Shown one piece after another: positions 1-6,517 of a DNA stretch of 64,000 bases (positions are counted from its first letter, which is position 1; every line of letters starts with the position of its first letter). The notes beneath the pieces were generated by a model that saw nothing but the letters and a program-made list of their open reading frames with translations, was not told the origin of the DNA and made no database searches. Source of the stretch: Candidatus Latescibacterota bacterium (GTDB lineage: Bacteria; Latescibacterota; UBA2968; SICM01); contig CBDCJO010000001.1 in NCBI GenBank assembly GCA_965217865.1, forward strand, positions 352,001 through 416,000, in the 5' to 3' direction. The position numbers and the translations under genes were made by a program.

Positions 1-604
1 TCTCCGCCCGGTACTGATTGAAAAGCAGATCCACCTCGACCCTCTGATCGCCCGGGAGGGAATCCAGCTCGTATGGCATCTGCTGGCTGAGCATGAGATT
101 CATCTTCTCCTTCTGAACCCTGAGAAGAGAATCGATCTTGCCGAACTCCATCGGCCTTTTCAGAGTCGGGTAATCGAGCAGGGGTGGCGTGTCCTTCACA
201 CCTCCGATGATGATCTTCGCCCGCTCAAGGGCATAACGAACCTTCATCTTTCCCATGTCATGGCGGATAGCCGGATCACGATTCCTTCTGAAGGCAATCT
301 GAAAGGCCTCGAGAGATTTCTTCAGATATAATAGACTATCGGCCTTCGCTTCCTTGGGAATCGAGTTGAATGCCAGCTCACACGCATTTCCGAGCCATAC
401 GTAATAGGGAACCGTGAAGGTACTCGCCTGATCAATGGCTTGCTTGAACAGATCAACCGCGGCCAGATAGTCCCCGCTCTGATAGGCTTCGCGCCCCTTT
501 TGAAAGGATTCGAAAGCCAGGTCGTCCGATTTCTCGACCGCAAAAGCAGATCCGGACGACCAGAGAAGAACCGTTGTCAGCATGATGGCCTGGAAAATTT
601 TCAT
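1..604 (-). CDS. Secreted TPR-like helical protein (3' end runs off the window; missing from the ORF track)
   Basis: Manual translation from ATG at 604 gives MKIFQAIMLTTVLLWSSGSAFA (signal peptide), then FQKGREAYQSGDYLAAVDLFKQAI...YYVWLGNAC (TPR-like). The frame is open to the window edge. Confidence 0.75.
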   Translation of the reverse strand, partial: MKIFQAIMLTTVLLWSSGSAFAVEKSDDLAFESFQKGREAYQSGDYLAAVDLFKQAIDQASTFTVPYYVWLGNACELAFNSIPKEAKADSLLYLKKSLEAFQIAFRRNRDPAIRHDMGKMKVRYALERAKIIIGGVKDTPPLLDYPTLKRPMEFGKIDSLLRVQKEKMNLMLSQQMPYELDSLPGDQRVEVDLLFNQYRAE

Positions 605-672
605 AAGTGCGCGACTCATAGGGTGCCAATCCTTTGCAATTTCCATTTTGTACTTTCCACCCCAACCCTCGT

Positions 673-792
673 CCTTCGACTCCGTTCCGCAAAAAACGCG
701 GAACGGAGTTTATCCTGAGCTTGTCGAAGGGCTCAGGAGGTATTCATTGTGTTTTAGGATCTCCTATCTATCGCGGGCTTCGCTTCGATCAG
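673..792. repeat. REP/MITE-like family A copy
   Basis: CCTTCGACTCCG-TTCCGCAAAAAACGCGGAAC hairpin, then CCTGAGCTTGTCGAAGG, then ...TATCGCGGGCTTCGC. Homologous to 11779 and 50445. Confidence 0.8.
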
Positions 793-847
793 CGGTGATC
801 TGTCGTTAAATTTTGCAATTTCCATTTTACATTTTTCATTTCCATGC

Positions 848-2446
848 TCACCTGAGCACCCGAGCCAGCATCCGAATTCCCCGAAGGGCTTCATCTTCGA
901 TAAGAAGTTTCCGCTCCAGGTCCGACTTCAAATAGATCCGGATGTCCTCCAGCCTGCCTGATGTGTAAGTGATCACGAATACCACACCGTCCTGGAAACT
1001 GATTCGCCCGCTTCCGGCCTCTGCGTTGATAATGGCCCCTTCGAACGAAAGGGACCGAGGATGGCGCAGGCTCGACAGGACCCTCTCGATCCTGATGAGC
1101 CGGGGCAGCTCCCCGGCCAAACTTCGGGAGGCCTGAAAATCCGAAAACTTGATTCGACCCGCCGAACGGTACTCTCCCGCGGAAAACGGTTCTGTCGTCA
1201 CGGGGGCGTGCGATGAAGCGGGGAGTTTAATCGGACCGGGAGTCCCGATCGCCTTTCGGCCTTGTGTCAAATAGCCCCTGGGAACCACCTGGACATCGGG
1301 TCGATCCCCGAAATAATTCGAAAGCCCGGAGCCGGATCCACGTTGAGGGCCGGCGATCTGGGGAACCTCCCGTCTTCCGATCGAAGGCCGGTCGATGTCC
1401 AGTTCCCTGGGCACATCCGGGACCTCGAAAAGCTCGGCCATCTGTTGTGACGGAAGCTCGATTTCGCGGGGTTCCTCCTCCGGTTCCTCTTCGATAAGGG
1501 GTTTCGCTTCTTCTGGCTCAGGACCACCGGGGGGCTCCTCCTCCTTCAGGGCTTCTTCGCTGAAGTTGAAAATCCCCTGGACGCTGAGCATGCTGAACTC
1601 GATCGAATTCGAGACGGCCTCGAGGGCCCGGTATGCAGCGGGAGGCTGGAAGGCGATGACCAGTGCGATTCCGACAGCGACAATTCCGGCGAAAACATGA
1701 ATCAGCCCGGACGCAACGGTATTCCAGAGTGAGCTGAGGGTCCTTCCAATGAGCCCCAAACCGGTCCCGGCTGCCGCAGCCCGCCGGATGTATTCAGACT
1801 TTCCTGGCTCAGAATCGGGCGCGGAACTTTCAGGATTCGCCGCTTCCCAGATCTCATCGATCCGTCGGGCGATCTCCTCCGACCCCGTCTCTCCGGCCAA
1901 ATCCTTCCAGCAATCCGCGAAGATACCCGATGCGGGGACGGCCCCCGCCTCCCGGCACACCAACCCGTAGGCGATTTCGATTTCAACGCGTCGTTCGGGA
2001 AAACGTTCCCAGAGTTTCAGGATGCCGGCCCGATTCAACCGCCGGAACCGGAGGATGGCCTCGTGCAGGATGTGACCCCGGTACCAAAGCTGAACGACCT
2101 CTTGCGAGGGCACGGGGGCGTGGCCTCCGGACGATGGGAATGACTTCCCGAGGAGTTCCCACGAGATCCTTTCATCAAGCGGGGAATCCGCTTCATCCCC
2201 CGGCATTGGATATTCGTTAGCCCGGAGCTGTTCGATCAGATGTTCAAGTGCGTTGTGATAGTCTTCCGCGAATGCCTCTTGGGACGGATAAGCCAGAGAC
2301 TGGTAAGCGTCGGCGGGCCGATCGCAACCCGCAACAGCGGAGAAGACCGCGAAAAGGTCGGATCGCTGGCTTTCCATTCGGGCCACGGTGCGCTGGATGA
2401 TCTCCAGGCAGCTCAGGGTGAAGAGATAATTTTTCATGCCGTCCAC
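848..2446 (-). CDS. Single-pass membrane protein, TonB/TolA-like, with a large N-terminal cytoplasmic domain (candidate anti-sigma factor)
   Basis: Hydrophobic segment ASGLIHVFAGIVAVGIALVIAF with an S-x3-H motif after ~240 aa, followed by an EEEPPGGPEPEEAKPLIEEEPEEEP linker. Lies directly downstream of the ECF sigma gene. Confidence 0.55.
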   Translation of the reverse strand: MDGMKNYLFTLSCLEIIQRTVARMESQRSDLFAVFSAVAGCDRPADAYQSLAYPSQEAFAEDYHNALEHLIEQLRANEYPMPGDEADSPLDERISWELLGKSFPSSGGHAPVPSQEVVQLWYRGHILHEAILRFRRLNRAGILKLWERFPERRVEIEIAYGLVCREAGAVPASGIFADCWKDLAGETGSEEIARRIDEIWEAANPESSAPDSEPGKSEYIRRAAAAGTGLGLIGRTLSSLWNTVASGLIHVFAGIVAVGIALVIAFQPPAAYRALEAVSNSIEFSMLSVQGIFNFSEEALKEEEPPGGPEPEEAKPLIEEEPEEEPREIELPSQQMAELFEVPDVPRELDIDRPSIGRREVPQIAGPQRGSGSGLSNYFGDRPDVQVVPRGYLTQGRKAIGTPGPIKLPASSHAPVTTEPFSAGEYRSAGRIKFSDFQASRSLAGELPRLIRIERVLSSLRHPRSLSFEGAIINAEAGSGRISFQDGVVFVITYTSGRLEDIRIYLKSDLERKLLIEDEALRGIRMLARVLR

Positions 2447-2476
2447 CTTTATGAATCACTTTATTTGATACGTGGC

Positions 2477-3142
2477 CTAAAGCTCGATTTCAATCTCAAG
2501 CTCGTGTTCCCGGATATAACGAACGGATGCCTGGAAAACCATTTCTCCGAGGGTGTTCGGATCGTATTGATCGGCGAGATAACCCAGTTTTTTCTTCAGT
2601 TTGCCCAAGGCGGTTCGGAATCGATAATTTAGACGGGGCGGGGACCATCCCTTCTCCTCCGCGATCCTATTTTGCCGCTCCCCCTGCAAGAGGACCTTGA
2701 AAAGGATGACCACATCCTCTTCGTCGAGCTGTTCCAGGACGATGAAGACATAGTCCTGCCCCCTGTCCCGCTCCCCCCGGCTTGTCTCCTGTGATGCCAC
2801 GGTCCGCGGATCTGTAATCAGGTCCGCCGTCTCGAGGGGTTGTTCCCTGACCCTCCGAAGGTGGTCCAGGCAGGCATTATAAGACATACGGCTGAGGAAA
2901 GCCGACCAGTTCAGGATATCGTTGAATTGAGGGCTTCGGCAGATCCGGATAAAGTCGACCAGTTTATTGTGAAAAAGGTCTTCCTTGATCATCGGGTCGA
3001 TCGGAAAAGTTCTCATCGTATACACAATAAATTCTCTCAGGTTCGCGTATTCTTGAGCAAGGAGTTCCCGGTTGCCTCGGTGAATCTCTTCTGCGATGGA
3101 TCTCAACCCGTCGTCGGAAATCGGCATCACGGGGCTCCGCAT
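2477..3142 (-). CDS. ECF-type sigma-70 factor
   Basis: Region 2-like KEDLFHNKLV...WSAFLSRMSYNACLDHLRR. Region 4-like LEQLDEEDVVIL...QNRIAEEKGWSPPRLNYRFRTALGKLKK. Confidence 0.8.
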   Translation of the reverse strand: MRSPVMPISDDGLRSIAEEIHRGNRELLAQEYANLREFIVYTMRTFPIDPMIKEDLFHNKLVDFIRICRSPQFNDILNWSAFLSRMSYNACLDHLRRVREQPLETADLITDPRTVASQETSRGERDRGQDYVFIVLEQLDEEDVVILFKVLLQGERQNRIAEEKGWSPPRLNYRFRTALGKLKKKLGYLADQYDPNTLGEMVFQASVRYIREHELEIEIEL

Positions 3143-3324
3143 CCGTCAAAATCTCATTGAATATTAAATATCGGAGAATTGAATATTTGAAAACCTCAGG
3201 ACTTTCTTGTGGGGATACGGATCTCTTCAATCTTCAATCTTCAATTCCCACTGGCCACTGCCACCTGCTACTGCCACTGCTTCTGCTTTTCCTGTTTCAC
3301 GTCTCACGTCTGACGTTTCACGGC

Positions 3325-3864
3325 TTACTGCCTTTTTGACTGGCTCTCGAGCCCCCACTGAACGGTCTTGAATCCCATGCGGTTGAGGGCATCATAGACC
3401 CCCACCGTGTAAGTCACGGTTGCATCCCGTTCGAAGTAGAGCCGGACAAGGATGTCCTCGGCGAGGAATCCTCGCTGACCAATTACGTTCTCCAATCCTA
3501 TTTGAGTGGCCTCAAAAACCGCCCGTTCGATGCCGGCCTGGTCGATATCGGGCGTCCTCTTGAACACATAATGCTCGTCGGTGACCACCCCGCCTTTGTC
3601 GAATTCAACGAACTCCTTTCCGACCACGATCTTGATGAAACGTTCGTCCCGGGGGTCCGGCGCCTTGTCCTCTTCGTCGGGCGCCTTCACAAAGTTGAGC
3701 TTTTGTGCGTGGACGAATCGATCGTGCAAATTAGCAAGGTGGATCTGCCAGACATTCTGGACGATGAAGAAGGTAAGCAGCAGAAAGAGGACATCGATAA
3801 ATCCTTCTCCCGCCTCAAAGACTCCCCCAGTGGTGCGTTTCCGACGACGGATCATCAGCGACAC
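3325..3864 (-). CDS. ExbD/TolR family protein
   Basis: Basic N-terminus, TM FIDVLFLLLTFFIV with the conserved Asp, C-terminal ...VGVYDALNRMGFKTV. Confidence 0.85.
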   Translation of the reverse strand: MSLMIRRRKRTTGGVFEAGEGFIDVLFLLLTFFIVQNVWQIHLANLHDRFVHAQKLNFVKAPDEEDKAPDPRDERFIKIVVGKEFVEFDKGGVVTDEHYVFKRTPDIDQAGIERAVFEATQIGLENVIGQRGFLAEDILVRLYFERDATVTYTVGVYDALNRMGFKTVQWGLESQSKRQ

Positions 3865-3869
3865 CTCGC

Positions 3870-5153
3870 TTAGCTTCGCTTTTCGCTGCTGGCCGCCGTT
3901 AGATGGATCTCCTCGGCGTTGTTCACAGGAGCATCAAAGTGCTGGACAATATCGATCATCACTGTCCGGTCCTGAATGGCCCTGCTCTTGATCTTTCGGA
4001 CCAGAAGAATGGACAGGACCCGCCCTATGAAACCGATGGCCGTCGTGACCAGGGCAAAGTTGATGTAGTGTGCCATCTTGAGTTGCGTTTGAGCCGGTCC
4101 TTCCCCGATCTTCATCGTGTCTTCCAGGACGGTAAAGGCATTGATCATCCCCAGAACTGTACCCAGCAGACCAAGCGAAAGAGCCAGGAGTCCGACCATC
4201 CCGAAAGTCTCCGACAACCGATCCTCAATCTCATCGAAGAGCATGTAGACCTTGTCGGTGCAGTACTCGATAAGTCGCGTCGAATCAGAGGCCGTATCCG
4301 GTCCGATCGAGGAGAGGATCTTATTAAGCTCTGTGTCCTCCTTGAAGGCATATCCCTTGCCTTCGGGAGAGAACCGCCCCCCCCAAAAAACTTCCATCTT
4401 GTGTCGGCGGATCGCCTCCACGTCCTGCTCGGAGAAAAATCGTTCCAGAGAAAGCTCCCCACCCCCCATAGCGTGTGCAAATCGGAAGATCATCCAGAAC
4501 GGCAGGGCGATGAGGACCAGAATCAGTGCGGTGGAAAAGGGGCCGCTGAATTCCGAAAAGTACCGGCCGATGACTTCACCGAGATCGATGCCCCGTACCA
4601 CAGTAGGAACCGCATTGTCAGCCCCGAACGAGATCATCAAACCGTCGATACGGTAATCCAAGAGCTGCGTGTTTGGCGGAATGGAGACATCTTGAGGGCT
4701 GCGGTCGAAGTCGATCTCGTACCGGCGGCCCCCCATCTGGAAGGAAAGATCGTCGATCACCACACTGTGACTGGCGTTCCGGGTCCGAATCACCAGGCTG
4801 TCGATTCCGGTTCCAACGACATGGACCTGTTCCTCTTGAATCCCGGAATAATAGGTCGAATCCCGACCCGCAATATGAACGATTACCGCAATGGGGAGAA
4901 AGCGGTCGACATTCCTGAAGCTGATGTTGTCCACCGGTATCTTCCGGTCGGGGTTGGCGGCATCCCGGAAAGTGATCGTTAGGGCTTTCCAGAAAGTCCC
5001 CCCCTGGAGGACCTGTCCGCCCTGGAGTCCGGTGAGGTAATCGTCGAGCCAAACCGAAGCCCAGAGGCCGCCATAGATGATGGCGAAGATCAACACAAGA
5101 TACTTGACGAATTGACTTAGTTCCTTGTTTTTAAACAAATTGAAATCCATCAC
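3870..5153 (-). CDS. MotA/TolQ/ExbB proton-channel family protein with N-terminal TM and periplasmic extension
   Basis: ALSLGLLGTVLGMINAF and INFALVTTAIG motifs. Adjacent to the exbD-like gene. Confidence 0.85.
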   Translation of the reverse strand: MMDFNLFKNKELSQFVKYLVLIFAIIYGGLWASVWLDDYLTGLQGGQVLQGGTFWKALTITFRDAANPDRKIPVDNISFRNVDRFLPIAVIVHIAGRDSTYYSGIQEEQVHVVGTGIDSLVIRTRNASHSVVIDDLSFQMGGRRYEIDFDRSPQDVSIPPNTQLLDYRIDGLMISFGADNAVPTVVRGIDLGEVIGRYFSEFSGPFSTALILVLIALPFWMIFRFAHAMGGGELSLERFFSEQDVEAIRRHKMEVFWGGRFSPEGKGYAFKEDTELNKILSSIGPDTASDSTRLIEYCTDKVYMLFDEIEDRLSETFGMVGLLALSLGLLGTVLGMINAFTVLEDTMKIGEGPAQTQLKMAHYINFALVTTAIGFIGRVLSILLVRKIKSRAIQDRTVMIDIVQHFDAPVNNAEEIHLTAASSEKRS

Positions 5154-5292
5154 TCCTCCTTGGCCCGATACGCAAGCAGACAGACACCCATCTATAACCT
5201 TCTTTCAAAATATATGACGTGTAAAAAGCGGAAAAATTAAAAAGAAACTAGAAGACAGAAGACAGAATAAAAACGTGAAGTGTAGAATTTCC

Positions 5293-5579
5293 GGCTCTCC
5301 CAGGAATATAGCGGACCCCTGTCTTCGCGATTGACACCCGGGCCTTTGAGCTAATCGAGACGCCGAGACTAAAGTCAGGGCCTTCTTTCAGCGCCAACGG
5401 CGCGTTGTCCTTTAACCCAGGCGAGCCGCCCTGGGTCGTGCGAAACAATAGCATCGTGCGGCCTGAAAGGCCGCGATAATTGTACATCACAATGCCCCAA
5501 TCCCTGTCCCGCATCCTGATTCATCTAGGTGTGGGATTGATCCGGATCGCGGACCGTTGGCCCGCTAATGCGTCGCCTC
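5293..5579 (+). mobile_element. Non-autonomous IS200/RAYT-tnpA-derived element, copy 1
   Basis: REP hairpins precede ATG 5492, which encodes MPQSLSRILIHL joined to GTG TGG GAT TGA (VWD*). Homologous to 11398 and 15429. Confidence 0.7.
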
Positions 5580-5686: not shown

Positions 5687-6517
5687 TCATTTCCCTACCC
5701 AATGCCGATAGAGCGGTTTGACGTCCTCAGGCAGGGAATCGTAAACGCTTTTAGGCACAGTTGGCACACGGTTTTCTTTCATGTTCGCCTCTTCGACCAT
5801 GCGTTGCCTGTCTGCGGAATCGGGTTTCATGGGATCCAGGTTCAGCCACCACGGGGCAAAGCGGATTGCCATGGCCACCCGGGTTCGGTCTGACCTATTT
5901 GGCGCCGCCGCGTGCCACATCCGGCTGTCGAAGATCATGACACTTCCCGCTGGGCCCGTTACCTGCAACTCGGTCGGATAGGGATCAATGGGATTGATGC
6001 CCATCCCTCCGGTAGGATTGTTGTTCGAACGGTGGCTCCCCGGAACAATGATCGTCCCTCCGTTTTCTTCCGTGAAATCCGACAACATCCAGATCGTCGT
6101 CAGGTGTATGACAGCATCCGGATACGGGGCGGGAATGTGTCCCGCATTGTGCTGGTTGAACGGCCAGTCGGCGTGTAAGCCGGTTCGCTGGCTGCCGCGA
6201 TCATTCACCATTCCGCTTGTCATCGAAATTCGGAAGTACGGACCGAAGGTCCGCTCCGCGATCCCCATCAGCCGGGGGTCGGTCAGATAAGGGGAAAATG
6301 ATTGATCGAAGTTGATCAAACCCGGCCGGTTGGCGATCCCTTTGGAGGAACCCGGCATTGCGTTTCGGACGACAGTCTCCTTGACGCTTTCCCGGACCGC
6401 TCCAACCTTGTCCCGGGGAATGACCTCATCCAGCACGTACCACCCATCGACATACAGATGAAGCGCCAATTCTTTCAGATCGTCTGATTGCAAACCAAAC
6501 CTCCTGCTCCAACGCAA
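5687..6517 (-). CDS. Phytanoyl-CoA dioxygenase (PhyH) family Fe/2OG oxygenase
   Basis: LHADWP (HxD), ENGGTIIVPGSH, GSVMIFDSRMWHAAAPNRS...R. The start may be TTG near 6493. Confidence 0.9.
   Translation of the reverse strand: MRWSRRFGLQSDDLKELALHLYVDGWYVLDEVIPRDKVGAVRESVKETVVRNAMPGSSKGIANRPGLINFDQSFSPYLTDPRLMGIAERTFGPYFRISMTSGMVNDRGSQRTGLHADWPFNQHNAGHIPAPYPDAVIHLTTIWMLSDFTEENGGTIIVPGSHRSNNNPTGGMGINPIDPYPTELQVTGPAGSVMIFDSRMWHAAAPNRSDRTRVAMAIRFAPWWLNLDPMKPDSADRQRMVEEANMKENRVPTVPKSVYDSLPEDVKPLYRHWVGK

Follow-up and report, generated by a model that had tools for sequence, protein, structure and literature searches.

Ton/Tol-type motors with transducers whose heads are not of the TonB type have been recognized only recently, and the jobs of these systems are still unknown. 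The available text of Williams-Jones et al. 2025 (PMC12204202) describes transducers composed of a transmembrane helix (TMH), a linker, and a vWA head in place of a TonB head, of unknown function, encoded beside tolQR-like and TPR genes. In the accessible parts of two studies of Myxococcus (PMC3169522, PMC11761067), GltG carries cytoplasmic FHA domains and a TonB-like head, interacts with AglR, a subunit of the motor, and has the TPR protein GltD as its modelled partner. Here, we describe an operon with a comparable layout in an uncultured Candidatus Latescibacterota bacterium (GenBank assembly GCA_965217865.1). It lies at the left end of a 64,000-nucleotide stretch of DNA (contig CBDCJO010000001.1, positions 352,001 to 416,000), called the window below, and encodes ExbB- and ExbD-type motor subunits, a bitopic protein of no named family that we call X, and TPR and PEGA proteins. 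In the window, a gene for an extracytoplasmic function (ECF) sigma factor stands between exbD and X. An earlier note on this DNA had proposed that X may serve as a transducer engaged by the motor and at the same time as the anti-sigma factor of this sigma factor.

A literature search, with subscription journals and supplements outside its reach, found no paper describing the operon. Set against the vWA-headed transducers, as covered in the available part of PMC12204202, the operon shares the TMH, the proline-rich linker, the globular non-TonB head, and the neighboring tolQ/tolR-like and TPR genes. It differs in that its head is not a vWA domain, it has one exbD rather than a pair, the SHLS motif is not conserved, and a cytoplasmic domain resembling sigma region 4 and a PEGA partner are added. 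With the Myxococcus AglRQS-GltG/GltJ and GltD/E system, as presented in the accessible parts of PMC3169522 and PMC11761067, it has in common a motor paired with a TonB-like protein that bears cytoplasmic protein-binding domains, the lack of a TonB-dependent receptor (TBDR), exported TPR partners, and small outer-membrane barrels, whereas GltG and GltJ carry FHA, ZnR, or GYF domains and heads like the TonB C-terminal domain. This likeness is one of layout, with no homology seen, and motility is not indicated for the operon.

Results

The conserved unit is exbB-exbD-X-TPR-PEGA, which is rare and occurs in uncultured Latescibacterota. Homologs of X were found in 20 of the 21 genomes of one genus of the same class (g13) and in 21 of 168 genomes of the phylum, that of the window included. 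The genes follow nearly one phyletic pattern across these 168 genomes (ExbB in 21, X in 21, TPR in 22, and PEGA in 22), the extra TPR and PEGA genomes being one each, of the window's family. The order exbB-exbD-X-TPR-PEGA was kept in 20 of 20 fetched loci, all from one genus; exbD adjoins exbB in every one of them and nearly always abuts X. A 1.3-kb metagenome contig of another lineage also carries exbB-exbD-X, with a 4-nucleotide (nt) gap between exbD and X. In genome G054 (L036:6489-9278), where the operon may be in decay, X is split into two frames, and exbB is separated from exbD by what we take to be a degenerate remnant of a TnpB-like insertion sequence.

The five co-oriented genes reported by the earlier note, exbB-exbD-sigma-X-TPR, are present in the window as five open reading frames (ORFs) on the minus strand, and the features that it had read from the motor subunits held up. 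The ExbB/TolQ-type subunit (427 amino acids [aa]; 3870..5153) matches PF01618 (E 1.1e-11; 45 bits against a cutoff of 22.9) and is 57-59% identical to its relatives. Hydropathy places an extra N-terminal hydrophobic helix at residues ~12-35 and the next helix at ~199-228; the intervening soluble segment of ~165 aa, close to the ~160 aa claimed, is conserved and predicted to be periplasmic. Thr332 and Thr370/371 of the channel helices are invariant in seven of seven aligned sequences, and we take them to be the equivalents of the E. coli threonines. The ExbD/TolR-type subunit (179 aa; 3325..3864) is 65-68% identical to its relatives and matches PF02472 weakly, below the cutoff (E 0.06); its transmembrane aspartate, Asp24, is invariant in six of six. 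Judged by these residues, the pair appears to have the channel-domain threonines and transmembrane aspartate of an ExbB/ExbD ion motor. By analogy with the family, a 5:2 stoichiometry and proton coupling would be expected.

Protein X (532 aa, or 529 aa from the likely start at 2437; 848..2446, minus strand) matches no Pfam or NCBIfam family, anti-sigma domains included, in hidden Markov model (HMM) searches. Hydropathy bore out the layout proposed for it, a soluble N terminus followed by one transmembrane helix and a Pro/Glu-rich linker. The single helix (residues ~246-266; 1649..1711) begins with S246-G-L-I-H250 (1697-1711), with His250 at the cytoplasmic edge of the most hydrophobic 19-residue segment (248-266). 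Beyond it lie a proline-rich periplasmic linker of ~150 aa (1187..1648; 13-20% Pro across the family), predicted to be disordered (pLDDT <50), and a C-terminal head of no named family (851..1186), modelled by AlphaFold2 (AF2) as an antiparallel beta-meander with helices. A single-sequence AF2 model (pLDDT 37) was set aside. X has the TonB/TolA layout of transmembrane helix, proline-rich linker, and globular C-terminal domain. Foldseek of X against the PDB yielded nothing at E 0.001 or below, and all matches in an HMM search of PDB sequences were at E 0.79 or above. In the ESM Atlas, residues 8-170 had no usable match, and residues 236-532 matched only unnamed clusters, all under 0.9. TonB, TolA, and anti-sigma chains were absent from the fold matches listed for X, which leaves room for a likeness to them.

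The S-x3-H motif of TonB-type helices proved to be exceptional in X of the window. This protein has just the S and H of the SHLS motif; the positions +7 and +11 relative to the His, which are Leu and Ser in E. coli TonB, are both Ala. The motif was found in 0 of 19 g13 homologs. We examined 61 X-family proteins (6 earlier finds and 55 new), 55 of which have the X N-terminal domain and are referred to as subfamily A. None of the 54 subfamily-A proteins other than X of the window, mostly near relatives of g13, has S-x3-H near the transmembrane helix, and in this subfamily the motif is limited to the window's own 90% cluster. The earlier note had named a lack of conservation of the motif in homologs as grounds for giving up the proposal.

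A connection to TonB-type helices came from a second branch of the family. The TPR ortholog in G002, a genome of the window's family, led to a 306-aa protein encoded upstream of that TPR gene, whose head is homologous to the X head (probability 92%, E 5e-7). Its gene (contig C539, L079:650-1570), which has no adjacent exbBD, belongs to a sister subfamily (P0027, P0078-P0082) in which 6/6 proteins have a TonB-type S-x3-H helix, a proline-rich linker, and an X-type head, with no sigma-4-like domain; in L079, the one locus of this subfamily that was viewed, the same TPR gene is the neighbor. Because the N terminus is short in P0027 and P0079-P0081 and is an unrelated helical domain of ~100 aa in P0082, the cytoplasmic module appears to be exchangeable. 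In a tree of 19 head domains, the two subfamilies split with 100/99 support. The tree leaves the place of the window among the basal subfamily-A sequences open, so its S-x3-H may have been retained or may have reappeared by chance. By descent, then, the X family is TonB-like, but S-x3-H is dispensable in just those loci that carry the dedicated motor. The long-ExbB subfamily, with its extra helix, is present in 21 of the 168 phylum genomes; it was found only in genomes with a subfamily-A X, always beside X. Three other weak matches to the X head occur in the phylum (E 0.003-0.009), and a match to X in G056 was rejected as an unrelated protein.

Thus, the operon is like Ton/Tol systems in its ExbB channel family with conserved threonines, its ExbD transmembrane aspartate, a bitopic partner with a proline-rich linker, and the S-x3-H of the window's X and the sister subfamily. 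It is unlike them in that the X head has no TonB_C or TolA match, the cytoplasmic domain of X reaches 170-245 aa, most X members have lost S-x3-H, ExbB has the added helix and periplasmic domain, and no TBDR, TolB, or Pal lies near the operon.

The cytoplasmic part of X is predicted to resemble sigma region 4 rather than an anti-sigma domain. Sigma-4 structures were the most frequent among the fold matches listed for residues 1-81, a predicted helix-turn-helix domain (2204..2446, minus strand), with 14 of 50; no anti-sigma chain was among the 50 matches listed for the N terminus, in which residues 110-166 were barely covered. That latter region (1949..2119, minus strand) forms a conserved four-helix subdomain with a mean identity of 48% to 26 homologs and a pLDDT of 73-91; its residues 145-165 may be like the N terminus of Bacteroidetes FecR-type anti-sigmas. 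All 55 subfamily-A proteins examined have the sigma-4-like domain, and the N-terminal domain is kept at 35-48% identity in loci without the sigma gene. A comparison of the X N terminus with 21 sigma-4 domains by local HMM and hhalign was not significant. With the register taken from the profile alignment, the putative recognition helix has a mean net charge of -2.2 in X (positive in 2 of 31 sequences), versus +3.0 in sigma-4 domains (positive in 21 of 21). Because this helix is acidic, the domain is most likely a degenerate helix-turn-helix for protein contact, not promoter binding. We rejected the window's sigma as a paralog of the X N terminus; it ranked near the bottom of 22 in a profile comparison.

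The sigma gene itself (2477..3142, minus strand) encodes a divergent, intact ECF-type protein of 221 aa, or 216 aa if translation begins at 3127, the likely start. The protein has regions 2 and 4, a basic 4.2 helix, and a C-terminal extension of ~30 aa. Its identification as an ECF sigma stands, with a TIGR02937 match over residues 32-186 (E 1.5e-10) that falls just under the cutoff (41 bits against 42.9). The conserved linkage to exbBD that the earlier note had made a test of its proposal was not borne out: a sigma gene between exbD and X was found in 0 of 21 related exbBD-X loci, a set comprising the 20 loci of g13 and the metagenome contig, with the contigs of the closest relative (P0004) and a distant one (P0007) outside it. 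An ECF profile built from 15 sigmas of the window's genome and run on six frames of these loci and of the window's own matched the window's sigma (E 5e-6) and nothing in the 21. With the sigma as the query, 0 of 21 g13 genomes had a match, and only weak generic ECF matches (E 1.8e-5 or worse) were found among 132 genomes of the class. A collection of 5.8 billion held only its own 90% cluster, 1 of 293 scored candidates; seven members of the cluster are full length.

Single contigs from three of four sequencing runs (X2, X6, and X7), from three studies, span the sigma-X junction, so it is not an assembly artifact. Among 22 strain variants of the sigma gene, 10 are synonymous and 12 nonsynonymous, six of the latter in the linker (pN/pS 0.35, p 0.015). 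Since the gene is intact and has this pN/pS, yet is absent from related loci, it appears to be a selected but lineage-specific insertion. It is separated from X by 30-40 nt of unique sequence and from exbD by genome-wide repeats (3143..3324; 190 blastn matches in the genome and raised contig depth). Rather than forming the core of a signaling system, the sigma was probably added locally, and its gene is probably read through from the exbB promoter; a promoter scan gave 4 matches against 2.6 +/- 1.5 by chance, none above chance. The sigma may regulate its own locus or another one, but it is not a partner that X requires. Elsewhere in the genome (contig C2:4549390-4553570), an ECF-like sigma of 672 aa, with a long extension at its C terminus, is encoded close to a frame of opposite orientation that has two TonB_C domains, and many of the genome's sigmas carry extensions of 250-450 aa without a transmembrane helix.

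The window holds the 5' part of the TPR gene (1..646, minus strand), whose product, 565 aa in full, has a signal-peptide-like N terminus and weak TPR matches. Downstream, beyond the left edge, are genes for PEGA (612 aa), Ig-domain (661 aa), and PorV-like (365 aa; weak PF19572 match) proteins, these three at 345367-350851 of contig 1 on the minus strand, and another TPR gene. The PEGA protein ends in a C-terminal hydrophobic anchor, and the C terminus of the Ig-repeat protein has what we take to be a likeness to FlgD/T9SS-type sorting domains. Within the window's family, the order is PEGA-Ig-PorV in G001 and Ig-PorV in G002. The PorV-like gene was found in 0 of 21 g13 genomes and is therefore outside the conserved core. 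A TBDR, which the earlier note had proposed to look for past the left edge, was not there: none was found among eight downstream genes scanned within 15 kb, where TolB and Pal were likewise not nearby, and all 27 PF00593 matches of the genome are on the other contig, C2, with none on the operon's, C1; a receptor may act in trans.

Intergenic positions 647-847, 3143-3324, and 5280-5400 are filled by repeats, short tandem units included, for which blastn gave tens to 190 matches in the genome, and a palindrome lies at 713-738 within the first. Upstream of exbB is a PhyH-family dioxygenase gene (5687-6517); this neighbor is not conserved, and in relatives its place is taken by a cupin-like gene. 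An ORF about 14 kb left of the window (positions 903-1403 of flanking stretch L001) is presumably an IS200-like transposase.

Discussion

We favor, as somewhat probable, the reading that the operon encodes a noncanonical Ton/Tol-type machine in which X is a motor-driven TonB-like arm acting on exported TPR and PEGA proteins. The proton-driven ExbB/ExbD motor would pull on X, which would span the periplasm and pass force through its head to these proteins rather than to a TBDR. X would engage its dedicated, divergent motor mostly without S-x3-H, the extra helix and periplasmic domain of ExbB having perhaps taken over the contact. The head may bind TPR/PEGA much as the TonB-like head of GltG is modelled to bind GltD, and in the window's family the Ig-domain protein together with the PorV-like barrel may be a further target.

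In a rival reading, X is a passive envelope scaffold, with X and TPR/PEGA cotranscribed with exbBD but undriven while the motor serves another TonB in trans. It is favored by the loss of S-x3-H in 54/54 other subfamily-A proteins, the X-TPR pair without adjacent exbBD in G002, and the six TonB_C matches elsewhere in the genome. However, the strict adjacency of the long ExbB to subfamily-A X argues otherwise, as does a canonical exbBD-tonB elsewhere in the genome (C2:3.905-3.907 Mb), which makes a canonical exbBD available to other TonBs; we regard the scaffold as very unlikely. The sigma gene suggests another role, in which X, at least in this lineage, would combine the functions of a motor-engaged transducer and of an anti-sigma for the ECF encoded beside it, with a new helical insert (about residues 166-245) binding the sigma. 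The sigma adjoins X across a short unique spacer, is intact and under purifying selection, and its 90% cluster and that of X have members on contigs of five shared sizes; the insert and S-x3-H both occur in the sigma-bearing lineage; and, according to the accessible part of PMC8999054, an ECF gene is often followed by the gene of its anti-sigma. Yet the sigma is absent from 21/21 related loci in which the X N-terminal domain is kept, this domain matches sigma region 4 with no anti-sigma chain among the 50 matches listed, and the correlation of insert and sigma comes from a single lineage. A complex prediction of sigma with X(1-205), scoring 0.00 against a mark of 0.32, provides no evidence for or against. 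With cell-surface signaling by FecI/FecR and the hybrid sigma/anti-sigma IutY (PMC5411451, PMC8999054), the operon shares, in the window's genome only, an ECF gene that immediately precedes the gene of a bitopic protein, and it also shares the fusion of a sigma-like domain to a membrane protein. The operon differs from them in having no FecR domain, no receptor, a sigma that is not conserved, and just a region-4-like part in X. The earlier reading thus needs correcting, in that an ECF gene beside a membrane protein does not by itself identify the latter as an anti-sigma, and we consider this role of X quite improbable. Of the earlier proposal, the TonB-like, motor-associated half survives, given the position of X after exbBD in 20/20 loci, its helix, linker, and head, and the sister S-x3-H in 6/6; the anti-sigma of a conserved motor-sigma system is not supported, with the sigma in 0/21 loci.

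The sigma-4-like domain allows X to be seen as a membrane-tethered regulator in its own right. As a remnant of an IutY-like sigma/anti-sigma fusion or as a PhyR-like sigma mimic, this domain would bind DNA, RNA polymerase, or an anti-sigma, and the force of the motor or proteolysis would alter how available it is. The 14/50 sigma-4 structures among the matches listed for residues 1-81 and the domain's presence in 55/55 subfamily-A proteins favor this, and the accessible parts of PMC5411451 and PMC8999054 indicate that sigma/anti-sigma fusions (IutY) and sigma mimicry (PhyR) exist. We hold it to be unlikely, if the least so of the alternatives. Of similarly low likelihood, ranking just after it, is a reading in which X is a force transducer that contains a sigma-4 mimic: the pull of the dedicated motor would change access to this cytoplasmic decoy, whose partner would be RNA polymerase, an anti-sigma, or, in this lineage, the ECF encoded next to X. 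If this were true, proton-motive force would be coupled directly to transcription without a TBDR or a separate anti-sigma.

The inserted sigma, the sister subfamily with S-x3-H, and the acidic recognition helix make this locus distinctive. To the Ton/Tol-type machines with non-TonB heads, the operon of the Latescibacterota contributes a transducer that has largely lost the supposedly essential S-x3-H and ends in a head of no named family, together with a motor that has gained a periplasmic domain. The sister subfamily that bears the motif is a natural comparison for how transducers dock on their motors. If the sigma-4-like domain touches the transcription machinery, the operon would represent a new route from membrane energy to gene control.
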